Source: a bacterium
GTDB taxonomy: Bacteria; Sysuimicrobiota; Sysuimicrobiia; Sysuimicrobiales; Humicultoraceae
Length of the DNA: 16,925 nucleotides
Direction of reading: 5' to 3'
Assembly: GCA_041497675.1 (NCBI GenBank)
Contig: JBGQGY010000085.1
Span: 1-16,925, forward strand
Shown here piece by piece: positions 1,408 to 16,767 of this stretch. Numbering within the stretch: position 1 is the stretch's first letter; each line of letters opens with the position of its first letter. Below the pieces are notes generated by a model that saw nothing but the letters and a program-made list of their open reading frames with translations, did not search any database and was not told the DNA's origin. The position numbers and the translations under genes were made by a program.

Positions 1408-2946
1408 TCAGCGCCCCGGCCGGATCCAGACCTTCTGCATGGGCTGAAAGTCTATCTCGATTGGGTTGCCCACTAGACCAACGACGTTGCGTTGATGCAC
1501 CAGCACGGCCTTGTTGTAGTTGAAGAAGAACCAGGGGGCGTCGGCGACGATGAGATTCTCAGCGTCCCGGCAGAGCTTCACCTGCCCGCGCGGGTCGAAC
1601 GTCCGCTCGGCTTCATCAATAAGCGCATCGACCCTGTCGTTCTTGTAGCGCATCCGGTTGCCGGCGGGCCCCACGTTGCGCCGGCGGAACGGCCCGAGGT
1701 AGTCGACACAGTTCGGGCCGCCGCCGTGCGACAGCACCCAGGCCGGGATCTCCCCTTTGCCGGCGCGGTCGAGCATCACGCCAAAGTCCTCCTGCACGAT
1801 GCGGGCGCGGATGCCGACGGCGGCCAGGTAGCGCTGAAATCCCTCCAGCCACCGCCCGGTCACCGAGTTGGCCGCCCCGTGCAGTTCGAGATCAAATCCG
1901 CCTTCCCGGCCGGCCTGCGCCAGCAAGACCTTCGCCCGCGCCGGATCGTACTCATACCCTTTCAAGGTGGGATTGTAGGCCGCGTGGCTCGGCGGGAAGA
2001 CCCCGGTCGCCACGAAGGCCTTGTTTTGCAAGATGGTGCGCACCATCGCCGCCTTGTCGATCGCCAGATTGATCGCCTGCCGCACGCGGACGTCGTCGAG
2101 CGGCGGCCTTGTCACGTTCAGCCCGACGTGGCGTGTGAACAACTCGGGCACCTCGATGATGCTCGACTTCCACGCGGGATCGTCCGCATACCGCCGGTAG
2201 GTGACGTCGGTCAGGATCATGTACTCGAGGCGGCCGGTGTCAAATTCCGCCTGCGCCGTCGCCGGGTCGGGGATGATTCGAAACGTCAACGTGCTGAGAT
2301 ACGGGCGGCCTTCCCAGTACTCCGCGTTCGCCCGCAGGACGATGACATCGTCTCGGCTCCACGACTCGAAGATAAATGGGCCCGAGCCGACGGGGTGCTG
2401 CCCAAACGCCCGGCCCAACCTCGTCACGTCTTCTCGTGGCACGATGAAGAGGCTCGTGAACGCCAGGGGAAACGTAGCGTTGACAACACTGTTTGTCACC
2501 GACAGGCGGTAGCGGTCGAGGATCTTGATCTCCGCGATGCGGTCGAAGGCACGCGCAAATGGCGAGGCGGTCTCCGGCGCCAGCAGGCGCTCGAGCGTAT
2601 ATTTGACATCCCCGGCCACCACCTCGCGCCCGTTGTGAAACCGCACGCCCCGCCGCAGGCGAAAGGTGATGGTTCGGTGATCCTCGCTGATGGTCCACGC
2701 GTCGGCAAGACCCGGTTCCAATTGCAACGTCTTGGGATTGGTGCGCAGCAACGAGTCGAACAGGTTCATCTTGACGGAGATGGCGCGGACGGTCGGCGCC
2801 TGTGCCGGGTCGAGGCTCGCCGGGTCGCCGTCGAGCTGGCGGCGAAACCGACCGCCCGACACCGGACTCTGGGCAGCGATCGGCGCGAGGCTCCCCACCT
2901 GCACGAGGATCAGCACCACAGCCGCCGCCAGCATTACCCGATACAT
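1408..2946 (-). CDS. ABC transporter substrate-binding protein, family 5 (DppA/OppA-like)
   Basis: Start reassigned from 3522 to ATG 2946, which has GAGG upstream and is followed by a Sec signal MYRVMLAAAVVLILVQVGSLAPIAAQ with no lipobox Cys. Family-5 motifs: SLDP, PGLADAWTISED, FRLRRGVRFHNG, PVGSGPF, DVRVRQAINLAID. About 512 aa. Confidence 0.93.
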   Translation of the reverse strand: MYRVMLAAAVVLILVQVGSLAPIAAQSPVSGGRFRRQLDGDPASLDPAQAPTVRAISVKMNLFDSLLRTNPKTLQLEPGLADAWTISEDHRTITFRLRRGVRFHNGREVVAGDVKYTLERLLAPETASPFARAFDRIAEIKILDRYRLSVTNSVVNATFPLAFTSLFIVPREDVTRLGRAFGQHPVGSGPFIFESWSRDDVIVLRANAEYWEGRPYLSTLTFRIIPDPATAQAEFDTGRLEYMILTDVTYRRYADDPAWKSSIIEVPELFTRHVGLNVTRPPLDDVRVRQAINLAIDKAAMVRTILQNKAFVATGVFPPSHAAYNPTLKGYEYDPARAKVLLAQAGREGGFDLELHGAANSVTGRWLEGFQRYLAAVGIRARIVQEDFGVMLDRAGKGEIPAWVLSHGGGPNCVDYLGPFRRRNVGPAGNRMRYKNDRVDALIDEAERTFDPRGQVKLCRDAENLIVADAPWFFFNYNKAVLVHQRNVVGLVGNPIEIDFQPMQKVWIRPGR

Positions 2947-3078
2947 CACAGACCTCACTGCGAGGTTCTTGCCGCGGTGAGAACACCCCTCCCGCGTCAA
3001 TTCGACAGGAGCCTCTTTGCCTGCCGTGGAAGCCGCGCGTAGGCCGGCCGCCCGAACACCCACGCCCGGAGGTGAAGT

Positions 3079-4749
3079 GTGATCGATCTGAACGAGGTCT
3101 CGCAGGACAAGCTGATGGAGTTCACCCGCACCATCGCGCAGTGGACCAGGCTCTCCGGCAGCGCGGAGGAGCGCGCCGCCGCCGAGTACGTGGCGGGGGA
3201 ACTGCGGACGATGGGGTACGACGTCCGCATCCTGGAACACGACGCCTACATCAGCCTGCCGGGGAAGACCTCGCTGCGCATCACGGCGCCGCAGACCCGC
3301 GACGTGCGCTGCATCACGCACTCCATGGGCAGACCCACCGGCCCGCAAGGTGTCACGGCCGAACTCGTCTACGCCGGCCGCGGCGAACTCGACGATTACG
3401 CCCGCAGCGGCGCGGCGGGCAAGTTTGCGCTCGTCGAAGGGCGCGCGACCCCCCAGCACGCGGTCAACGCCACGCGGGGCGGCGCCTTGGGTCTCGTCTG
3501 TATCAGCGGCCGCGTCGCGCACGAGATGTGCTGCTCACCCGTCTGGGGCAACCCGTCTGCCGCTACGGTCGCCACGCTGCCCGCCGTGCATCTCATTTCG
3601 GTGGACAAAGCCGACGGCGAGTCGCTGCGAGACCTCTGTCGCCAAGGGCGGGTCGAGATTCGGGCGACCGCCGAGGTACAGACGGGGTGGACGACAACGC
3701 CCATTGTCCAGGCCGATCTGGCGCCGGGGCATCCCGCTGCCGAGCAGACCTTCGTGCTCTTCTCCGGCCACCTCGACTCGTGGTATCTGGGCGCGATGGA
3801 CAACGGCAGCGCGAACGCCGCGATGCTCGAGGTCGCGCGGTTGGCGGCGCATCATCGAACCGCGCTGCGGCGCGGCCTCCGCGTCGTCATGTGGTCGGGA
3901 CACTCGCACGGCCGGTACTCATCGTCGGCATGGTACGCCGACACCTTCTTCGTGGAACTGGACGAGCGGTGCGTGGCGCACGTCAACACGGACGCGCTGG
4001 GCGGCGTCGGCGCGGATCAGTTTGGCACCAACTCGATGCCCGAGACGGCGGCGCTGGCGATTGATGCGACGCGTCGTGTCGCGCAGGCGCCGATGGACGC
4101 GCACCGCGTCGGTCGGAACTCAGACCAGTCGTTTCACGGCGTCGGCATCCCGTGCATTCTCGGCGTGGTCTCAAAACAGGCAGACGGCGGCACCGGATGG
4201 TGGTGGCACACGCCGCATGACACGATGGACAAGATCGATCCCGCCCGGCTGACCAGAGACGCCAGGATCTTCGCAGACGTGGTCGGGCGATTGGTGACCG
4301 AGGACGTGCTGCCGCTCGACTATGCGGCGAGTGCGGCCGACATCCGGCAGAATCTCGACTCGCTCGCGCAGGCGGCGGGCGGGCGCTTCGACCTGACGCC
4401 GGCCATCAGCGAAGCGGCACGGCTCGAATCCTTGTGCCGGCGGCTGAGCGATGCGGCCCGCACGGCCGGCGTGCGCGCGCCACACATCAACGAGTGCCTG
4501 CGACAGCTGGGGCGCATCTTGATACCGGTGACCTACACTCGCGCAGGCCCCCACGCGCACGACCCCGCCCTCGAGGTGCCGTTCCTGCCGAAGCTCCAGC
4601 CTGTGCGCCAGTTAACCGCCTTGTCGAAGGGGAGCGATGGCGAGAAGTTCCTGTTGGTGGACTTGATCCGGGCACGCAGCGAAGTGACGAGCGCCCTCCG
4701 CCGTGCGTGCGCGGTCGTTGAAGCGTGCCTGGCCTCGGTGCAGACCTGA
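3079..4749 (+). CDS. M28-family metallo-hydrolase with PA domain, predicted cytoplasmic, non-canonical active site
   Basis: GGAGG precedes the GTG start. RLSGSAEE motif, PA-like segment (AELVYAGRG...GKFALVEG), ligand motifs SGHLDSW, GAMDNGSA, HVNTD and WHTPHDTMDKID. No signal peptide. Confidence 0.88.
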   Translation: MIDLNEVSQDKLMEFTRTIAQWTRLSGSAEERAAAEYVAGELRTMGYDVRILEHDAYISLPGKTSLRITAPQTRDVRCITHSMGRPTGPQGVTAELVYAGRGELDDYARSGAAGKFALVEGRATPQHAVNATRGGALGLVCISGRVAHEMCCSPVWGNPSAATVATLPAVHLISVDKADGESLRDLCRQGRVEIRATAEVQTGWTTTPIVQADLAPGHPAAEQTFVLFSGHLDSWYLGAMDNGSANAAMLEVARLAAHHRTALRRGLRVVMWSGHSHGRYSSSAWYADTFFVELDERCVAHVNTDALGGVGADQFGTNSMPETAALAIDATRRVAQAPMDAHRVGRNSDQSFHGVGIPCILGVVSKQADGGTGWWWHTPHDTMDKIDPARLTRDARIFADVVGRLVTEDVLPLDYAASAADIRQNLDSLAQAAGGRFDLTPAISEAARLESLCRRLSDAARTAGVRAPHINECLRQLGRILIPVTYTRAGPHAHDPALEVPFLPKLQPVRQLTALSKGSDGEKFLLVDLIRARSEVTSALRRACAVVEACLASVQT

Positions 4750-5083: not shown

Positions 5084-5498
5084 GAGTCCGGCCGCCGTGG
5101 TCTTGGATGCCGGGCCCCTCATCGCGCTGGTTCATGCGGCGGACCAAGATCACGCCACCTCGGTGGCAGGCTTCCGGCAACTCGCTGCTTCTGGCGCGCG
5201 CTTGATTGCGCCGCTGCCGATCGTCTTCGAAGTCTACAAGTGGGTGCTCTACAATGGGGGGAGCAGAGCCGCGGGGCGGGCTTTGAGCACGCTCGTGGAA
5301 GCCACCGAGGTCGTGTACCCGAGCCCCGAGGAGTTTGGCGGCGTGCGGGAACTCGTCGCCGCACTTCCTGACTGGCAGGGCACCCTGGAAGACGCGCTGG
5401 TAGCGCTCATCGCGCTGCAACTCCACGTGCCCCTGTGGACCTTGAACTACCGTGACCTGAGCGCCTTTCCGCGGTTGTCGTTCTGGACTCCGAATTGA
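5067..5498 (+). CDS. vapC: PIN-domain (VapC-like) ribonuclease toxin
   Basis: VVLDAGPLIAL, DxxH, PIVFEVY, TLEDAL and LWTLNYRD match the PIN acidic active-site pattern. TTG start with GAGGA 8 nt upstream; alternative GTG at 5097. Confidence 0.85.
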   Translation: MRKNGESPAAVVLDAGPLIALVHAADQDHATSVAGFRQLAASGARLIAPLPIVFEVYKWVLYNGGSRAAGRALSTLVEATEVVYPSPEEFGGVRELVAALPDWQGTLEDALVALIALQLHVPLWTLNYRDLSAFPRLSFWTPN

Positions 5499-5986
5499 GG
5501 CGCGTCGTGAAGGGCAAGCCGACCGGGCGCATGCCCATCCAGTCACGCCTGGCAGACTTCTCGCCTGCACGCCTCCGAAGGATACTGGCCGATCTCCCGC
5601 CTGCCAAGGGCTATCGCCTGGACGTCAAGCCCCTGCGGTACCGCAGCGGCCCGCACCTTCAGGCCCTGTGCGACTATGAAGCGCGCGCTCTCACCGTACA
5701 AGTTCCCGAACCGTTCCGGCCCTTCAGACAGCGCATCCCCTACCGGGCCCAACGCATCAAGTCACGCGCGGCGCGCGGTGACCGGTTTGCGTTTCGGTGG
5801 TTTTACCGCGACATCGTGTTCCGCACCAAGACCGAAGTCATTCGCTTCCTGTATTGTCACGAGTTCTATCATTACTACCTCCACGAGGTGCTCGGGAAGA
5901 AGGGCTCGGCCGAGACGGCGTGCGACCGGTTCGCCCTCCGGTACTTCCGTAAACGCCCATCGAGCAACCACATTACAATGCCCTGA
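5495..5986 (+). CDS. Hypothetical zinc metallopeptidase (HExxH, resembling ImmA/IrrE)
   Basis: HEFYH at 5858-5872 followed by AETACDRFA, resembling the ExxAxxFA helix of ImmA/IrrE (COG2856). TTG start overlaps the toxin stop (TTGA); alternative starts are GTG 5507 and ATG 5531. Very Arg/Lys-rich. Confidence 0.65.
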   Translation: MRRVVKGKPTGRMPIQSRLADFSPARLRRILADLPPAKGYRLDVKPLRYRSGPHLQALCDYEARALTVQVPEPFRPFRQRIPYRAQRIKSRAARGDRFAFRWFYRDIVFRTKTEVIRFLYCHEFYHYYLHEVLGKKGSAETACDRFALRYFRKRPSSNHITMP

Positions 5987-6094
5987 AACCTTCTCTAGAA
6001 CAGGACTAAACTCTGCCCCAATTCGGCATATACATGGTGCATCCCATCCCCGCCGGAGGCTTTCCCGCCACCGCGACGCGAAGGAGTGAGCCGA

Positions 6095-6361
6095 ATGGCA
6101 AAGAGGATTCACCTGCATGTCAAGGTCCGTGATGCGATGGGCAACGTCACCGTGTACGACACGGCCGGGCTCGTCGATGAGCCCCCGGTGATCCATGAAG
6201 TCGTCTTCGATCCGCCCATGGTCCCGTCCGGTGGTTCCACACGGCTGACGATCCGCGCACACGATCCGGAAGACGAAGCGTTGACCTACGAAGTCCATGC
6301 GAGCGAGGGCGTCATCGAGCCGACAGATCAACCGAACGTGTTCATCTGGCGCGCCGCCTAG
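6095..6361 (+). CDS. Small Ig/cadherin-like beta-sandwich protein, apparently circularly permuted
   Basis: AAGGAG lies 8 nt before ATG 6095; 88 aa. PPVI...P..V..G...LTIRAHDPEDEALTYE..ASEGVI.....VFIWRA matches strands A-E of bacterial Ig/cadherin-like repeats. N-terminal IHLHVKVRDAMGN resembles the F-G hairpin. No signal peptide. Confidence 0.75.
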   Translation: MAKRIHLHVKVRDAMGNVTVYDTAGLVDEPPVIHEVVFDPPMVPSGGSTRLTIRAHDPEDEALTYEVHASEGVIEPTDQPNVFIWRAA

Positions 6362-8206
6362 ATGCTTGAACTTCGCATTACCGTCCGGGATCGCTTTGGG
6401 CAGGCTGCCCACCGGACGTTCACGATCGAGGTCGCCAAGCCGAGCCAGCCGGGGCCGGTCGACGTTCGCAGGCCGGGCCGGCCCCGCCAGCGCATCCGGC
6501 TTGGACAGATCCTGATCGAAGCGGGTCTCGTCACTCAGGCGCAGCTCCAGCAGGCGCTGGAACGTCAGCAAGAGACGGGTGAGCGTCTCGGTCAGATCAT
6601 CCTTGGTATGGGTCTCGGCTCCCAGGAGGGGGTCGCGGCCGCGATCGCCCAGCAGTTGCATATTTCGTTCGTCCGCCTGAGCGAAACAAGACCCGATGAA
6701 GCGCTCTTGCTGCGCGTGCCGGAGTATCTGGCACGGCGCCATCAGGTGATCCCTCTCAGCCAGGCGGATCGCACCCTCACGCTCGGTATGATCGACCCGG
6801 TCGACATCCTTGCGATCGATGAGGTCCGGCGCGTGACGGGTCTCGAGATCGAGCCCGCGGTCATCACGGCCGATGACTTCCAGCGCGCGCTGAGCGTGTA
6901 TCCGACGTCGGATACCGCCGTCGATGACGCGATCCAGGCGATCATGCCCTTCGATGAGCGGTTTGCGGAAGAGGAGCCCGACCGGCTGAAAGAGCTAGCG
7001 GATGAGGCGCCGGTCGTGCGCTTGGCCAACCTCATCATCATCCAGGCCGTCCGCCAGGCGGCCAGCGACATCCACGTCGAACCGATGGAGACCCTGATGC
7101 GGGTCCGCTATCGCGTCGACGGCACGCTGTACAGCGCCATGACACCCCCCGCGCGCGTCCAAGCCGCGCTGATCTCGCGCCTGAAGATCATGGCCACGAT
7201 GAACATCGCCGAGCGGCGGCTCCCGCAGGACGGCCGCATCCAGCTCAAGGTCGACGATCACGATATCGACCTTCGCGTGTCCTCGATCCCGACCACATGG
7301 GGCGAGAAGATCGTCATGCGGATCCTCGACAAGCGCGCCGCCTTCGTCGGGATCGACAGGCTGGGCATGGCGCCCGATGATCTGACGCGCTTCGAGCGAA
7401 TCATCTCCAGACCACACGGGATCATCCTGATCACGGGCCCGACCGGGTCGGGCAAGACGACGAGCTTGTACGCGATGCTGAACCGGTTGAACAAGACCGA
7501 GGTCAACATCACGACGATCGAGGACCCGGTCGAGTATCAACTCCCGGGGATCTCGCAGGTCCAGGTGAATCCACGAGCCGGGGTCACCTTCGCCACCGGC
7601 CTACGCTCCTTCTTGCGGCAGGACCCGGACATCATCATGGTCGGCGAGATCCGCGACGAAGAAACGGCCCGCATCGCGATTCACGCCGCGCTGACCGGGC
7701 ATTTGGTGTTGAGCACGCTGCACACCAACGATGCGGCGGGCGCGGTCGCCCGTCTCACCGGCATCGGGTTGGAGCCGTTTCTGGTGGCCTCATCGGTCGT
7801 GGGTCTCATCGCGCAGCGGCTCATCAAAGTACTCTGCGAGCACTGCAAGGAGCCGTACACGCCGCCCGATGATCTGCTGGCGCGCCTCGGGATCCCGGCG
7901 AACCCGGCGCCGACGTTCTACAAGGCCACGGGCTGCCCGCACTGCAGCCAGTCGGGGTATAAGGGCCGGGTCGGCCTCTTTGAGGTCATGCCGATGGACG
8001 ACCGCATCAAGGACCTGATCACCCGCAATGGCACCGCCGACCAGATCCGCGAGGCCGCGGTGGCCGCAGGCATGAGGACACTGTCGCAGGATGCCCTCAG
8101 CAGAGTGGTCTCTGGGGTCACGTCGGTGGAAGAAGCGCGCAGGGTCGTGTTCACGCTCGACCAGTCGCGCCGCCGCGTGGTGCAGGCCTCGCCGGCGACC
8201 GCTTAG
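6362..8206 (+). CDS. pilB: PilB/GspE/MshE-family secretion or pilus ATPase with MshEN domain and an extra N-terminal beta-hairpin
   Basis: MshEN motifs RLGQILIEAGLV...LQQALERQ and RLGQII (6497-6655), ASDIHVEP, RYRVDG, ERRLPQDG, Walker A GPTGSGKTT, TIEDPVE, LRQDPDIIMVGEIRD, His box LSTLHTND, Zn-binding CEHC/CPHC, and GYKGR. Confidence 0.95.
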   Translation: MLELRITVRDRFGQAAHRTFTIEVAKPSQPGPVDVRRPGRPRQRIRLGQILIEAGLVTQAQLQQALERQQETGERLGQIILGMGLGSQEGVAAAIAQQLHISFVRLSETRPDEALLLRVPEYLARRHQVIPLSQADRTLTLGMIDPVDILAIDEVRRVTGLEIEPAVITADDFQRALSVYPTSDTAVDDAIQAIMPFDERFAEEEPDRLKELADEAPVVRLANLIIIQAVRQAASDIHVEPMETLMRVRYRVDGTLYSAMTPPARVQAALISRLKIMATMNIAERRLPQDGRIQLKVDDHDIDLRVSSIPTTWGEKIVMRILDKRAAFVGIDRLGMAPDDLTRFERIISRPHGIILITGPTGSGKTTSLYAMLNRLNKTEVNITTIEDPVEYQLPGISQVQVNPRAGVTFATGLRSFLRQDPDIIMVGEIRDEETARIAIHAALTGHLVLSTLHTNDAAGAVARLTGIGLEPFLVASSVVGLIAQRLIKVLCEHCKEPYTPPDDLLARLGIPANPAPTFYKATGCPHCSQSGYKGRVGLFEVMPMDDRIKDLITRNGTADQIREAAVAAGMRTLSQDALSRVVSGVTSVEEARRVVFTLDQSRRRVVQASPATA

Positions 8207-8766
8207 CGAGTCCGGTCCCTGCCCAGCCGGTCCAAGAGTCCTTCCGCGGTCTCGTCAATCTCGATCATGCGCCGATTTTCCGGTTTGATGAACTGCTGCT
8301 CGACCGCGTGGTCGAGGAAACCGATCAGGCGGTCATAGTACCCGCACACGTTGAGGAGACCGCAGGGCTTCTCATGGACGCGGAGTTGCGCCCACGACAC
8401 GATCTCGAAGAACTCGTCCAGCGTGCCGAGACCACCCGGCATCGCAATGAACGCATCGCCCAGATCGGCCATCAGCGCCTTGCGTTCGTGCATCGAGTCG
8501 ACGACGCGCAGATCCGGCAGCTCCTTGTAGGCGACCTCGCGCTGCACGAGCAGCCGCGGGATCACCCCCACCACTTCGCCGCCGGCTTCAAGCGCCGACG
8601 ACGCCAGCTCGCGCATGGTGCCGATGCCCGACCCGCCGTATACGAGACCGATCTTCCGGTCCGCCAGCAGGCGGCCGAGCCCGCGGGCCGCGTAGACATA
8701 CTCCGGTCTGGCACCGATGTTCGATCCGCAAAAGACCGTCACGCGTTTCAATGCCAGCGCGCTCAC
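8203..8766 (-). CDS. LOG-family nucleotide 5'-monophosphate phosphoribohydrolase (TIGR00730-type)
   Basis: VFCGS, LVYGG, SMHERKALM and the signature PGGLGTLDE. GTG start overlaps the MFS stop (GTGA). Confidence 0.93.
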   Translation of the reverse strand: MSALALKRVTVFCGSNIGARPEYVYAARGLGRLLADRKIGLVYGGSGIGTMRELASSALEAGGEVVGVIPRLLVQREVAYKELPDLRVVDSMHERKALMADLGDAFIAMPGGLGTLDEFFEIVSWAQLRVHEKPCGLLNVCGYYDRLIGFLDHAVEQQFIKPENRRMIEIDETAEGLLDRLGRDRTR

Positions 8767-9932
8767 GCGTCATGCTCCCGAATCCGCGAAGCCAGGACCA
8801 GCCGCGCGGCGGAGATCGCGGCGGCCGCCAGCCAGATCGTCGTGAAACTGCCCGTACGATCCAGCACCCAGCCGAAGATCACGCCTGCCAGACCCGAACC
8901 CGCCTGCGCCGCGGCGACGGTGATCGACGAGATGACCCCCGCCCGATCGGGCCCGACGCTCTCGATCGCCAGGACGGTCAGGGGGGTCACGGCGACCGAT
9001 ATGCCCGTGCCCAGCACGAAGACGAGTGCGTACAGCAAAGCGCCCCTGCCGACCACCGTCAAACCGAGGAACGAGACCAGCAGGGTGGCGGTGCCGAAGT
9101 AGACGAGCGGCAGGCGTCGGCCTATGCGGTCGGAGAGGATCCCCGCGGGATACACGCCGGCCATTTGCCCGACCAGCACAATGCCCATGATGTACCCGCC
9201 CTGCACCTTCGTGTAGTGGAGCACCTGAGTCAGGTGCGTAGGCAGCCACCCGAGCGCCCCATTAGCGGTGAACAGTCCCAGCAGCGCCGTCACCGTGATC
9301 AACGCAAGGTTGCGGTCAAGCAGCCCACGCAGCGGAGTGCGAGGCCGGCCGGATGGCTCGCCGGCCGCCGCCCGATCGATCCCGGCCGACGGTAAGAGCG
9401 CCAACGCCCCGGCGCACAGCAGCGGCAGGCTCAGCAGCAAGTATTGATAATTGACCCACTGACTGAGCACCGGCAGGAGGCTGAGCGCCGTGAGCGTGCC
9501 GAGACCGGTGGCCGTGTCCATCACACCGACGGCTTTGCCACGGATGTCGCGGGTGAAGCGCACGGCCACGAGCTTGAGCGACGCGGTGAATGTCATGGCC
9601 ACAGCGGCACCGGCCAGGACTCGCGCCGCCAGCGCGACCGCATAGGATTGCGTAAGCGCCACCACGACGCCGGTGAGTCCCATCAGGATCAGACCGATCG
9701 TGAACTGTCGGCGCGGGTTGGCGTAGTCGGCGGCGGACCCCGCGGGGATCAAGGACGCGGAGTATCCGAGGAAGAACGCTGAGAAGAGGGTGCCGGCGCC
9801 CGTGTAGCTGGTGCCGAAGCGCGTCATCAGTTCGGGATAGAACGGCACGATGTTCAGCCGGGCCACAAAGGCGACAAACCGTCCGGACGAGAGCAGGACC
9901 AGGAGGGGCATGTGCCCGCGCAGCGGTTTCAC
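8763..9932 (-). CDS. Major facilitator superfamily transporter
   Basis: About 12 hydrophobic segments with motif-A-like GSAADYANPRR and GILSDRIGRR. The start is probably GTG 9932 or ATG 9911, because the 10055 start would overlap mobA. Confidence 0.88.
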   Translation of the reverse strand: MKPLRGHMPLLVLLSSGRFVAFVARLNIVPFYPELMTRFGTSYTGAGTLFSAFFLGYSASLIPAGSAADYANPRRQFTIGLILMGLTGVVVALTQSYAVALAARVLAGAAVAMTFTASLKLVAVRFTRDIRGKAVGVMDTATGLGTLTALSLLPVLSQWVNYQYLLLSLPLLCAGALALLPSAGIDRAAAGEPSGRPRTPLRGLLDRNLALITVTALLGLFTANGALGWLPTHLTQVLHYTKVQGGYIMGIVLVGQMAGVYPAGILSDRIGRRLPLVYFGTATLLVSFLGLTVVGRGALLYALVFVLGTGISVAVTPLTVLAIESVGPDRAGVISSITVAAAQAGSGLAGVIFGWVLDRTGSFTTIWLAAAAISAARLVLASRIREHDA

Positions 9933-10553: not shown

Positions 10554-11393
10554 GCGCCGGACACCTGGGATTCGAGCCGGATGCGCTCGCGTCCGGCGTA
10601 GATATTGAACCGCTCACCCCTGAGGAATCCCACAAGCGTCATGCCAAACTCTCGCGCGAGATCCACCGCCAGACTGCTCGGCGCCGAGACCGCGCAGAGC
10701 ACCGGGACGCCCGCCACCAGGCTCTTCTGCACGAGCTCAAACGACGCCCGGCCGCTGACCATGACGAGGTGATCGGCGAGCGGCAGCCGGTCCTCCAGGA
10801 ACGCCCACCCGACCAGCTTGTCCAGGGCGTTGTGCCGCCCAACATCCTCACGCACGGCGACGAGCGCCCCGTCGCGGTCGAACAACGCGGCGGCGTGCAA
10901 CCCGCCGGTCGTGCGAAACACCCCCTGCGCCGCCGCGAGCTTTTCGGCCAAACCCGCGAGGAGCTCCGGCGTGATCTGCGGACCCGGCAACAGCCGCGGG
11001 TACCCGCGAAGGTGCAGGGCCTCGAGACTCGCCTTCCCGCAGACGCCGCACGCGCTCGTCGTGTAGAAGTGCCGTTCGAGGACGGCCAGATCCGGAAGCT
11101 CGCGCCCCCGCAACGCTACCTGGACGATGTTGTAGTGCTGGTCGGCGTCGACGTCGGGATCGGTGCAGTAGGTGAGGCGGTGGACCTGATCGCGTGACCC
11201 CAGCACGCCCTCGGCAAACAAGAAACCGGCGGCCAGCTCGAAGTCGTGCCCGGGGGTGCGCATCGTCACCGCCACCGTGCGCCGCTGCGACCCCGCGAGC
11301 AGCCGGATCTCCATCGGCTCCTCGGTCGCCACCTGGTCGGACCGTTTGTGCACGCGGGCGCCCGCCACGCTCCACAGATCCATGGGACTCTTG

Positions 11394-11410
<17 letters not shown>
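10550..11410 (-). CDS. fdhD: Formate dehydrogenase accessory sulfurtransferase
   Basis: EEPMEI, TMRTPGHDFELAAGFL, SACGVCG, TGGLHAAA, REDVGRHNALDK, SGRASFELVQK and SAPSSLAV motifs. Confidence 0.96.
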
Positions 11411-13619
<2,209 letters not shown>

Positions 13620-13727
13620 CGGGCGATTTCGCGGCGGCTCCCCTCACCCCTGCCGGGCGCTGCATCCGGTGCCCGGTGAAGGGCCGGGGCGGCGAACCGC
13701 CAATACTACTGTTCCTGCGGGTCTGCG

Positions 13728-16058
13728 ATGCGGCGAACCACTGGTGACGGCGCGTTACCCTTCCGGCGCTTCCATTCCTGGAGCGTCCGGTCCACTCTTG
13801 TCCTGTTGATCCTGCTGGCCATCATCCCCGCCCTCGGCCTGACGCTTGGGGCGGGGGTCCAGGCGCGGCAACTGGCCCGCGAGGACGCCCGCGAGGACGC
13901 CCTGCGGCTCGCCCGGCTCGTGGCGTCGCGCGAAGAACGAGTGATCGAGGGGACGCGCCATCTGCTGGTGGCTCTCTCGCTCGTGCCGGAAATCCGCGGC
14001 GCGAGCGGCGATATGTGCAGCGCGATCCTGTTTGCGGTGCTGCCTTCCTATCCAGAGTATGTGAACCTGGGCGCTGCACGACCCGATGGCACCGTCTTCT
14101 GCGGCACGCGGCCACTTGCGACACCCCAGAGCATTGCGCGGGACACACACTTCACCCGGGCGGTCGAGACCCGCAAGTTTGCGGTCGGTGCCGCATTCGA
14201 TGACCCAGGGACGGGAGCCCGAACGCTGGCGGTGGCGCACCCGGTGTTGGACGCGAACGGACGGCTCCTGGCCGTGCTGTTTGCGGGTCTCAAGGCCTCG
14301 TGGCTTGCCGACCTGGTGAGTGGCGTCAGCATTCCGCCGGGCGCCGAGGTCGTCATCTTCGATGTCCACGGCATGATTCTCGTTCGCAGCCCCGAGCCCG
14401 AGAAGTGGGCCAGCCGCGTCATGCCCGACGCGCCGATCACGCAGGCCATCCGTCAGACCCCGACCGGCGGGGTACGTGAGGTCCTAGGCGTCGACGGCGT
14501 CATGCGCCTGTGTGCCTTCACCCCGTTGTATGAAGATCCATCGAACAGTGTCTATGTCGCTGTCGGGCTCTCGACGCGCGAGGCCTTCTCGACGGCCAAC
14601 CGGCTTCTGCTGTTCAATCTCCTCGGCGTCGGAGTCGCCGCAACCCTGGCACTGGCGGTCGCCTGGTGGGGCGGGGGCTTCCTGCTCGGGCGGCAGATCG
14701 AGGATCTGGCGCGGGCCGCTGCGCGCATTCGCGAAGGTGACACCTCGGTGAGGGTCGCCGCCCCGCCGGGACAGGGTGAACTGAGCCTGCTCGCCGCGGC
14801 CTTCAACAAGATGGCGGCGACCGTCCAGTCGCGTCAAGGAGAGGTCGAACGCGCCAACAAGGACCTGCGGGCTCTCTCCAGTCATCTCGAGCAGCGCGTG
14901 CAGGAACGGACGGAAAGCCTGCGCGAGGGCGAGGCGCGCTACAGAGATCTCTTTGAGAGCGCCAACGACATAGTCTTCACCATGGACATGCAGGGGATTC
15001 TGACCTCGATCAACCGCACCGGCGAACAACTGCTCGGATACACGCGCGAGGAGCTGCTCGGCAAGAGCTTTCTGCAGTTGGCGGCCCCGGAAAACCACGA
15101 CGCCGCCCTCCGGCGTCTGGCCGCCAAAAGCGCCGGCGGTGACTCGATGCTCTACGAATCTGTCGTGATCGCGAAAGACGGCCGGCGCATCCCGATCGAG
15201 GTGAGCACGAAGTCGCTCCACCGCGACGGGAACCCCACCGAGGTCCTCGCCGTGGCGCGCGACATCACCGAGCGGAAGCGTGCCGAAGAGCAGCTCCGGC
15301 GCGAGACGGCCGAACGGGCACGGCTCGAAGCCGAGCTCGTGCAGTCGGCCAAGATGGGCTCGCTGGGGATCATGGCGGGCGGCATTGCCCACGAAGTGCG
15401 CAACCCGCTGGCGATCGCGTCGGCCGCGGCGCAACTGCTGCTGGAACAGCCAGACGACGAGCGGCTGCGCGCCGAGGGCCTGCAAAAGATTCAGACCGGC
15501 ATCCAGCGCGCCACCGGCATCGTCGAAAATCTCTTGAAATTTGCCGGACCGATGTCTGGTGAGATGCAGCCGGCGGACGTGAACGATCTCATCAAGGAAA
15601 CGCTCGCCCTAGTCGAGCACGAAATCACCCAGCGCGGCATCGACCTCCAGACACGTCTCGCCGACGGCCTGCGCCCGGTCCGCGCCAACGCGAGCGCCCT
15701 TGAACAGGTCTTGACGAACCTGATCCTCAACGCGTGCCAGGCGATGGACCAGGGCGGCATACTGACGGTGGCGACCGAATCGCAGGGGAGTGACGTCACC
15801 GTGCGCGTCGCGGACACCGGGCCCGGGATCAGGCCCGAGGACCTGCCCCGGATCTTCGATCCGTTCTTCACGACGCGCCCGCCCGGACAGGGCACCGGGC
15901 TGGGTCTGGCGATCAGCTATCGCATTGTCGAACAGCACCGGGGCACGATCGATGCGTTCAACAATGACGAGCACGGCGCGACGTTCGTCGTACGGCTGCC
16001 GGGTGTTGACACGGGTCGGTCCGCCGCCAGACTGCGCGCGGACAGGTTGGGGAGGTAA
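13728..16058 (+). CDS. Membrane sensor histidine kinase (TM-dCache-TM-HAMP-PAS-HisKA-HATPase)
   Basis: Two TM segments flank a Cache-like region. HAMP ([14 protein letters not shown]), PAS ending in RDITERK, H-box [13 protein letters not shown]-box [24 protein letters not shown] and GTGLGL. Exact start uncertain. Confidence 0.94.
13875..13902 (+). repeat. In-frame 12-bp tandem repeat within the kinase gene (ARED-ARED-A)
   Basis: GCCCGCGAGGAC twice, then GCCC; perfect copies. Confidence 0.7.
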
Positions 16059-16062
16059 CGGC

Positions 16063-16767
16063 GTGGCACGCGTCTTGGTCGTCGACGACGAACAGGATCT
16101 TCTCTGGGCGCTCTCGCGGAGTCTGGGCACCGCGGGATATGAGATCCTGACAGCCCGGACCGGTAGCGAGGCGCTCAGCCTGGCCCGCCGTCACCGGCCC
16201 GATCTGGTGATATTGGACATCATGATCCCCCAACCGGACGGGCTGGAGGTCTGCCGGCGGCTGCGGGGTGACCCCGTGCTGAGCGATGTCCCGATCCTCT
16301 TCCTCACCGCCAGACGCAGCGTCGAAGACCGTCTCCGAGGCTTGGAGGACGGGGGCGACGACTATCTGATCAAGCCGTTCGACATCCGCGAGCTCCGGGC
16401 CAGGGTCACCGCGCTGCTGCGCCGGACGCATGCCAGCGCGCAGCCACGCTCAAAGGAACTGGCGGTCGGCGACGTACGCCTGGATCCGGCGGTGCGCCAG
16501 GTCCTCGCTCGTGGAAGGCACGTCCAGTTGACGCCGTTGGAGTTCGACCTGCTCTACCACCTGATGGCGCATCCTGGGGAACTCTTCTCGTCGCAGGAAC
16601 TCCTGCAGGCGGTGTGGGGCCACGCTCCCGAGTCACGCGACTACGGTCTGGTCCGGTGGCACATGATGAACCTGCGGCACAAGATTGAAGCCGATCCCGA
16701 CCGGCCGGTCTACCTGAAGACGGTGCCGCGCCACGGGTATCTCTTCTCCGGGCGCCACACCGTCTAA
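16063..16767 (+). CDS. OmpR/PhoB-family response regulator
   Basis: GGAGG (16051-16055) then GTG 16063. Receiver domain VLVVDDE, ILDIMIP, FLTAR, DDYLIKPF; winged helix LTPLEFDLL...VWG...LRHKIEADP..P.YLKTV..HGY. 234 aa. Confidence 0.95.
   Translation: MARVLVVDDEQDLLWALSRSLGTAGYEILTARTGSEALSLARRHRPDLVILDIMIPQPDGLEVCRRLRGDPVLSDVPILFLTARRSVEDRLRGLEDGGDDYLIKPFDIRELRARVTALLRRTHASAQPRSKELAVGDVRLDPAVRQVLARGRHVQLTPLEFDLLYHLMAHPGELFSSQELLQAVWGHAPESRDYGLVRWHMMNLRHKIEADPDRPVYLKTVPRHGYLFSGRHTV

Follow-up and report, generated by a model that had tools for sequence, protein, structure and literature searches.

A candidate naturally split immunoglobulin-like domain shared between a small protein and the N-terminus of a PilB-type ATPase

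Some described systems assemble one protein fold from more than one polypeptide. In chaperone-usher pili this is achieved by donor-strand complementation, where an incomplete immunoglobulin (Ig)-like fold is completed by the strand of another polypeptide, which carries it in an N-terminal donor segment. Split inteins and the SpyTag/SpyCatcher pair, the latter made from a split Ig-like CnaB2 domain, also reassemble by fold complementation. In the type II secretion system, the N1 domain of EpsE is said to bind the cytoplasmic domain of EpsL. Archaeal cannulae have been described as donor-strand filaments as well (10.1101/2024.12.30.630787). The present study concerns a 16,925-nt stretch of bacterial DNA (contig JBGQGY010000085.1 of assembly GCA_041497675.1, here called the window), in which an open reading frame (ORF) for an 88-residue protein is followed immediately by the gene of a PilB/GspE-type assembly ATPase. 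The reading favoured here, to which we give a probability of roughly 0.55, is that these two genes encode a naturally split Ig-like domain, in which a β-hairpin at the start of the ATPase completes the fold of the small protein and thereby tethers the small protein to the ATPase. A full-text literature search found no description of such a split-Ig/ATPase arrangement.

The nearest mechanistic analogue of this arrangement is donor-strand complementation as seen in chaperone-usher pili and archaeal cannulae, since there too a fold is completed from another chain. However, the element missing here is a hairpin of two strands rather than one strand, the proteins would be cytoplasmic, and it is an ATPase that supplies the cognate donor, at its N-terminus. 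Chaperone-usher pilins are secreted subunits encoded with chaperone and usher genes, whereas Pfam detected no PapD, chaperone or usher family in the window and no hydrophobic leader was seen by eye in MAKRIHLHVKVRD; the sequence-only reading of this stretch had likewise noted no signal peptide in either protein, which holds on inspection. The tandem Big_9/PKD/K319L-like arrays (PF17963, PF00801, PF22352) of secreted and surface proteins have clear sequence homology to the split region, but here there are 1.3 repeats, a stop codon in the E-F loop, a second piece fused to an ATPase, no signal peptide visible by eye, and a first hairpin that has lost the canonical core pattern of the G strand. 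As in split inteins and SpyTag/SpyCatcher, one domain lies in two pieces, and these are expected to reassemble non-covalently; unlike those systems, there is no splicing or isopeptide chemistry, and the domain is divided naturally, between neighbouring genes and in a way that a clade has conserved. EpsE and EpsL offer a parallel in that the N-terminal appendage of a GspE-family protein is the docking point of a partner, although fold and binding mode are unrelated and EpsL is a membrane protein of the machine itself. Finally, the ATPase has the T2SSE plus MshEN layout of the PilB/MshE/GspE ATPases whose MshEN domain binds cyclic di-GMP (c-di-GMP) (PMC5013675, PMC11656802), but it differs from these in a 45-residue N-terminal extension, made of the hairpin and a linker, and in being an orphan gene with no pilus genes in the 16.9 kb. 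In the PilB cofactor review (PMC11656802), the terms 'Ig-like' and 'sandwich' do not occur.

Both genes lie on the forward strand, as do all features of the pair given below. The small ORF runs from an ATG at 6095 to a TAG at 6359-6361 (6095..6361) and is preceded, by direct reading of the sequence, by a Shine-Dalgarno-like GAAGGAG (6080..6086) 8 nt 5' of the ATG. Its translation consists of an N-terminal β-hairpin (residues 4-27, 6104..6175; h1 hereafter), which is a homologue of an Ig F-G hairpin with an altered G-strand pattern, followed by Big_9/PKD-type strands A to E (residues 28-88, 6176..6358; the body), which according to array alignments terminate in the E-F loop. The ATPase, identified by Pfam and NCBIfam, has 614 residues and runs from an ATG at 6362 to a TAG at 8204-8206 (6362..8206). 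It begins with a second hairpin (residues 2-24, 6365..6433; h2 hereafter), assigned by array alignment across the stop codon as the cognate F-G hairpin of the split domain, and continues with a Pro/Arg-rich linker of low identity and variable size (residues 25-45, 6434..6496). On re-reading, the coordinates and content that the sequence-only reading had given for the small protein and the start of the ATPase were correct. What it had not reported is that the two ORFs share a common frame, that the TAG is all that separates them, and that the ATG of the ATPase abuts this TAG, stop and start following each other without a gap (6359..6364).

No Shine-Dalgarno-like site precedes the ATPase ATG on reading of the sequence, and because this ATG also abuts the TAG, the ATPase is probably made by termination-reinitiation. 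No further in-frame ATG, GTG or TTG was seen by eye between the ATG at 6362 and the MshEN motif; this is therefore the only in-frame start ahead of the motif, and h2 necessarily belongs to the ATPase. The GC content at third codon positions (GC3) of the small ORF is 0.76, like that of the adjoining genes. A scan for promoters and terminators over 5400-8800 returned nothing relevant.

The homology of the split region was examined with a 142-residue stretch (P0004) obtained by reading through the TAG, which was entered as X. A phmmer search of 1.84 billion protein representatives with this read-through stretch returned 661 proteins at E<=1e-3, 120 at E<=1e-10 and 3 at E<=1e-30, and the matched stretches run unbroken past the stop (for example, query residues 4-115, 7-115 and 8-114). 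BLASTP alignments to tandem arrays also span the stop (E values of 4e-13 and 3e-10). All six multi-repeat proteins that were scanned with Pfam, among the 150 matches listed, were Big_9, PKD and K319L-like_PKD arrays. In these alignments h1 corresponds to the F-G hairpin of one repeat (n-1), the body (residues 28-88) to strands A-E of the repeat after it (n), and h2 (residues 2-24 of the ATPase) to the F-G hairpin of that same repeat n. Both the stop codon and the Met are placed in the E-F loop; in the arrays this loop has about three more residues. The unbroken alignment across the stop thus indicates that h2 is the cognate F-G hairpin of the body in the small protein and that the stop codon sits in the E-F loop. 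Judged by sequence comparison, the region is best described as a stretch of 1.3 repeats from a tandem Ig array, interrupted within the E-F loop by a stop codon.

This description changes some of what had been proposed from the sequence alone. The Ig body of the small protein does appear to be incomplete, with strands A-E only, as had been stated: the array alignments agree on this, and a relative (P0103) matches positions 1-61 of the 89 positions of Big_9 in Pfam at 21.8 bits, under the cut-off of 23.6, which places about the first two thirds of an Ig domain in the small protein and the F and G strands in the next ORF. The claimed homology of the two hairpins also stands, but by another route than direct comparison. 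Directly compared, h1 and h2 are only weakly alike (6 of 23 residues identical by eye), and small proteins of three relatives matched the h2 region of the window by tblastn at E values of 0.24-0.56; their homology holds because both align, within single alignments, to the F-G hairpins of successive Big_9/PKD repeats. It follows that the ATPase hairpin is not a second copy of the small protein's own hairpin, as had been supposed, but the missing F-G piece of the small protein, and that 'circularly permuted' is not the best label for the latter. Neither the small protein of the window nor the read-through stretch matched a Pfam Ig family even at E<=10, and searches of PDB sequences with both gave chance-level matches only (E of 0.46 or worse). 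An Atlas feature search leans towards Big_9/PKD-type families, which at scores of 0.89-0.90 is a lead only. Matches of the small protein and the read-through stretch to PKS_DH_N in Pfam (E of 0.04-0.085) were set aside as chance level.

The split is not peculiar to this window. Among 8 candidate relatives of the small protein, 7 were clusters of 87-88 aa with 64-95% identity and identical ends, and three further small proteins of 87-91 aa have the same architecture, including h1, at 41-49% identity. On the ATPase side, the comparison covered the 120 best listed of 2028 matches at E<=1e-150, among 8000 candidates scored. A hairpin is present at the N-terminus of 45 of these 120, with lengths of 584-655 aa, and by eye 44 of the 45 keep the register M-x-x-(L/I/F)-(R/N/H/Q/S)-(I/V)-x-V; the other 75 have no hairpin at their start and are 499-599 aa long. 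The sequence-only reading had asked whether homologous ATPases keep the hairpin, which these do, and whether relatives encode the two parts as one uninterrupted protein. None of the 45 hairpin ATPases is fused with the small protein, as none exceeds 655 aa and they are too short to include it, and no fused form was found among 333 word-sharing candidates of 386-1231 aa. In the same way, no ATPase domain was found in the 150 listed Ig-array matches, where five weak matches were repeated short stretches. One hairpin ATPase (P0259) has at least four additional open codons before the usual Met.

The hairpin also follows the phylogeny of the ATPases. On a tree of 119 of the 120 listed ATPases, built from their last 500 residues (the fragment P0175 was left out), the hairpin label changes 5 times, compared to a mean of 36.1 changes when labels were shuffled, and none of 500 shuffles was as low. 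A clade of 60 canonical PilB proteins of 564-591 aa is without the hairpin (support by the SH-aLRT branch test, 97). Three pairs of a small protein and a hairpin ATPase have longest contigs of equal size (P0020 with P0206, 45315; P0018 with P0234, 40442; P0021 with P0210, 10012), and because P0206 and P0210 sit in a deep hairpin clade other than that of the window ATPase, this suggests that the pair may be as old as the hairpin clade. The contig sizes of the more distant small proteins (4014, 3019, 7915, 1331, 5721, 1946, 37059 and 1791) had no match among the 120 listed ATPases. A scan of genome contigs gave 80 loci, of which only one (L001) is close (91%) and ends at ATPase residue 74, while the remaining 79 are ordinary PilB genes of 41-52% identity; a tblastn search of all 80 loci with the read-through stretch and the 11 small proteins gave a best E value of 0.019. 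The relatives of the window proteins are labelled Armatimonadota by NCBI, which makes this phylum the probable origin of the window.

Some observations on individual relatives belong beside these counts. Four 552-aa ATPase calls (P0183, P0184, P0194 and P0231) begin inside the first c-di-GMP motif; the first three nest in hairpin clades, P0194 standing beside P0181 with branch lengths of 0.010-0.015, and P0231 falls in the canonical clade. These are probably mis-called starts or broken N-termini and not real losses of the hairpin. A hairpin ATPase of 623 aa (P0202) and a canonical PilB of 569 aa (P0228) have the same longest-contig size (70221), and this match suggests that the hairpin form probably exists as an additional paralogue alongside the usual pilus ATPase. 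A small protein of 161 aa (P0127) has a hydrophobic N-terminal extension of 70 residues, followed by an internal Met at the position where the other small proteins usually begin; either its start was mis-called or the protein is a variant anchored in the membrane. There is also a second group of small proteins (P0134, P0143, P0137 and P0169; 77-131 aa), one of them from Armatimonadetes bacterium CSP1-3, which have an A-E body about 33-44% identical to that of the window protein but no clear h1. They carry an Arg-rich tail after the E strand, perhaps because their ends overlap, in another frame, with the following gene. If these proteins also precede hairpin ATPases, then h1 would be dispensable and the central element of the system would be the pairing of body and h2.

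Both hairpins are under constraint. Among 42 hairpin ATPases (three near-identical copies removed), mean pairwise identity is 0.54 for h2 and 0.62 for its F strand, compared to 0.63 for the whole protein and 0.65 for the c-di-GMP motif; it falls to 0.24 in the Pro/Arg linker (residues 25-43), the size of which differs between relatives, and to 0.12 in the C-terminal tail. Among the 11 small proteins it is 0.53 for h1 and 0.58 for the body. By these sequence comparisons, h1 and h2 are about as conserved as folded domains and the linker is not. The two hairpins differ, however, in how well they keep the pattern of an Ig G strand. With positions numbered from the glycine of the turn, the 29 array hairpins that could be anchored, out of 32 segments, are hydrophobic at positions +7, +9 and +11 in fractions of 0.86, 1.00 and 0.93, and h2 closely follows this in the 42 sequences, with 0.90, 1.00 and 0.98. 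In the 11 h1 sequences the corresponding fractions are 0.00, 0.00 and 1.00, and h1 is hydrophobic instead at +2, +4 and +5 (0.91 each) and at +10 (1.00). An F-G profile gave mean scores of 5.2 bits for h1 and 8.6 bits for h2, though it was built from ragged segments, is rough and is superseded by the position tally. On these sequence patterns, h2 appears as the canonical donor for the body and h1 as a remodelled hairpin.

Structure prediction leads in the same direction. For the small protein alone, AlphaFold2 with an 11-row alignment gave a confident model (mean predicted local distance difference test score, pLDDT, of 92.5; predicted template modelling score, pTM, of 0.67; pLDDT of 85-95 over h1) with strands at 3-12 and 18-27 (h1), 32-39, 48-56, 73-76 and 82-86, and no C strand. 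A Foldseek search of PDB with this model returned nothing at E<=1e-3 (best 0.26), and its top matches were two-domain Ig proteins at a root-mean-square deviation (rmsd) of at least 7.8 A, with no single-domain match. The small protein alone is thus not predicted as a complete Ig domain, in line with the earlier expectation. For the read-through chain, a 27-row alignment was used that consists largely of uninterrupted arrays; since the array rows skip one repeat after query residue 76, co-variation between E and F in that alignment cannot be trusted. The model has a mean pLDDT of 82.2, which drops to 71-35 in the Pro/Arg linker, and shows additional strands at 64-69 (C), 91-98 (F) and 104-111 (G). 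Foldseek matched it to Ig and cadherin domains at a probability of 1.00, with one match at E<=1e-3, and against single Ig domains it reached template modelling (TM) scores of 0.64-0.65 and rmsd values of 3.6-3.7 A. A recognisable Ig domain is therefore predicted only when h2 is present, and the models fit a sandwich that is completed by h2 and not by h1 in cis.

The protein that carries h2 has the characters of an assembly ATPase. Pfam finds T2SSE (PF00437; 480.6 bits; residues 212-594, 6995..8143) and MshEN (PF05157; 69 bits), the combination that defines the family, and a Walker A motif GPTGSGKT and two CxxC pairs can be seen by eye. In NCBIfam it scores 646.2 bits for GspE (TIGR02533), above the cut-off of 630.25, and 654.1 bits for type IV-A PilB (TIGR02538), below the cut-off of 675.65. 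Residues 47-596 correspond to profile positions 2-562, so that the first 46 residues are extra to canonical PilB. The c-di-GMP-type MshEN motif pair of 53 residues (residues 46-98, 6497..6655) matches the model for the MshE-type c-di-GMP motif, NF053729, with 54.8 bits (cut-off 38) and over the full profile (1-53 of 53), which bears out the earlier assignment of such a motif to this ATPase. When compared by eye with the pattern given for the motif pair in PMC5013675, motif I (46-69) matches exactly, the spacer has 5 residues, and motif II (75-98) deviates at three positions, with G, V and I in place of the expected (L/V/I), L and L. The sequence evidence suggests that the ATPase is probably an orphan PilB paralogue of Armatimonadota and a putative binder of c-di-GMP.

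The favoured reading can be put as a sequence of steps. In the ancestral gene, part of a tandem Big_9/PKD Ig array would have preceded a PilB-type ATPase, and a stop codon arising in the E-F loop of the last repeat would have split this gene. One bicistronic message would then give two polypeptides, the 88-aa protein with its open A-E sandwich and an ATPase bearing h2 as part of its first 24 residues, and with translation by termination-reinitiation the ATPase would be made beside the newly made small protein. h2 would insert into the open sandwich and complete the fold, placing one small protein on each ATPase protomer by a flexible Pro/Arg tether ahead of the c-di-GMP-type MshEN, with up to six per hexamer. 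In this model h1 would be what remains of the repeat before, conserved yet remodelled. It is probably not a second donor for the same groove; most likely it serves as a second binding surface, either for a partner or for pairing between neighbouring appendages. If this is correct, it would be a new mode of attaching an accessory subunit, with one half of a domain built into the N-terminus of a motor ATPase. It would also give a handle on an unstudied family of PilB paralogues in Armatimonadota, which in this window lies away from pilus genes and is probably c-di-GMP-sensing, and it bears on how far gene fission within a domain is tolerated. The pair might also find use as a small tag-and-catcher system of natural origin.

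Several points weigh against this reading. The conservation of the split was judged at the protein level, from the ends of the relatives' sequences, and the additional codons in P0259 indicate that the junction varies between relatives. That the two genes are paired in relatives was deduced from equal contig sizes. The predicted Ig fold of the read-through chain follows from homology, and as a single-chain model it is no demonstration of assembly in trans. Finally, h1 is confident in both AlphaFold2 models but neither reveals its contacts, and the favoured model gives this conserved hairpin no defined partner.

It is the role of h1 that leads to the first alternative, the head-to-tail chain proposed by the sequence-only reading, in which h1 completes the body of the next subunit, the subunits form a cytoplasmic non-covalent stalk or filament, and h2 caps or nucleates its acceptor end. 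An N-terminal donor followed by an incomplete Ig body resembles chaperone-usher pilins, h1 is conserved like the body and retained in small proteins of 41-49% identity, and the small protein alone was not modelled as a complete domain. Moreover, at a 1:1 ratio there are two hairpins for each body, hence h1 needs some partner. The linker between h1 and strand A is also only 4 residues long, which disfavours canonical self-completion because the N and C termini of an Ig domain lie at opposite poles; this part of the earlier argument holds. However, h1 is without the core hydrophobics at +7 and +9 in 11 of 11 sequences, positions that are hydrophobic in 90-100% of h2 sequences and 86-100% of the arrays, and with its hydrophobic residues moved to +2, +4, +5 and +10 it is expected to fit the groove less well than h2, which also scores higher on the rough profile. 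This weakens the filament, which we consider unlikely. A more specific form of it, in which h2 nucleates and h1 propagates an Ig chain of variable length, built of the 88-aa protein, on each protomer of a c-di-GMP-sensing PilB-type hexamer, is quite unlikely; if true, it would represent an analogue, inside the cell, of the polymerisation of chaperone-usher pili, and one that works without a chaperone or an usher. Alternatively, the small protein could be self-contained, with h1 packed against the body of the same chain, either as in a true circular permutant or non-canonically, and the ATPase hairpin serving another role. The confidence of AlphaFold2 throughout the small protein, h1 included, agrees with this, as does the tip of h1, which is hydrophobic on both faces like a packed element. 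But the model is without the C strand, the Foldseek matches to two-domain and not single-domain proteins suggest an elongated shape, and in the canonical topology the 4-residue linker is too short to span the sandwich. This explanation also leaves unexplained why a canonical cognate hairpin is kept at the start of the next gene in 45 relatives, and we regard it as improbable.

Two further explanations dispense with assembly from two partners. If the TAG were read through or suppressed, a fused product of h1, a complete Ig domain and the ATPase would be the functional protein and the 88-aa protein a by-product. This would agree with the shared frame and single stop, with the complete domain predicted for the joined chain, and with the missing Shine-Dalgarno site at the ATPase ATG. 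However, read-through does not require a start codon at this position, and yet one is found at the same place in 44 of the 45 hairpin ATPases, and the small proteins of 87-88 aa share one end point. P0259, with its extra open codons before the Met, also speaks against it, as do a predicted RNA fold around the junction that is no better than that of shuffled sequences (z = -0.46), the lack of an Rfam match at the junction and the lack of a tRNA in the window. TAG furthermore terminates the ATPase gene itself and the molybdopterin oxidoreductase gene in the window. A reading of TAG as a codon for pyrrolysine, or as a sense codon in general, was rejected because TAG ends other genes of the window. 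Two polypeptides are thus favoured over read-through, which appears decidedly improbable. The last explanation, that the small ORF is a decaying and functionless remnant of a broken Ig array in front of the ATPase, could draw on the lack of a Pfam match for the small protein of the window and of pilus genes around the ATPase. A remnant would not be expected to keep fixed ends down to 41-49% identity, to have both hairpins far more conserved than the adjoining linker, to show the GC3 of its neighbours, or to be present as a module in distinct deep clades, and we therefore consider this very improbable. The naturally split domain remains the favoured reading among these explanations.

The window has a GC content of 66%, and in Pfam the neighbours of the pair are a peptide ABC transporter, an M28 peptidase, an MFS transporter, MobA, FdhD, a molybdopterin oxidoreductase and a two-component pair. 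None of the 22 window ORFs scanned with Pfam over the 16.9 kb was a pilus or secretion gene (PilC, PilM-Q or pilins). Directly upstream on the same strand lies a 163-aa ORF (5495-5986, +), which stops 108 bp before the small ORF and has an HEFYH (HExxH-like) motif but no Pfam or NCBIfam family match; it could belong to the same operon as the small ORF.

A few listed ORFs of the window probably have wrong boundaries or are not genes. The response-regulator ORF (15790-16767, +) overlaps the histidine-kinase ORF (13728-16058, +) by 269 nt and has its receiver domain only from residue 95, so the true start is probably just past the kinase stop. The 704-aa SBP_bac_5 ORF (1408-3522, -) has its family domain only from residue 268, and towards its 5' end it overlaps the ORF of the M28 peptidase on the opposite strand (3079-4749, +); the listed start of one or both is therefore probably too far upstream. 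Shadow ORFs are expected in GC-rich DNA, and two long ORFs without a family match are of this kind and not genes: one of 326 aa (5762-6742, -), which is antisense to the small-ORF/ATPase pair, and one of 807 aa (11256-13679, +), which is antisense to the molybdopterin oxidoreductase gene.

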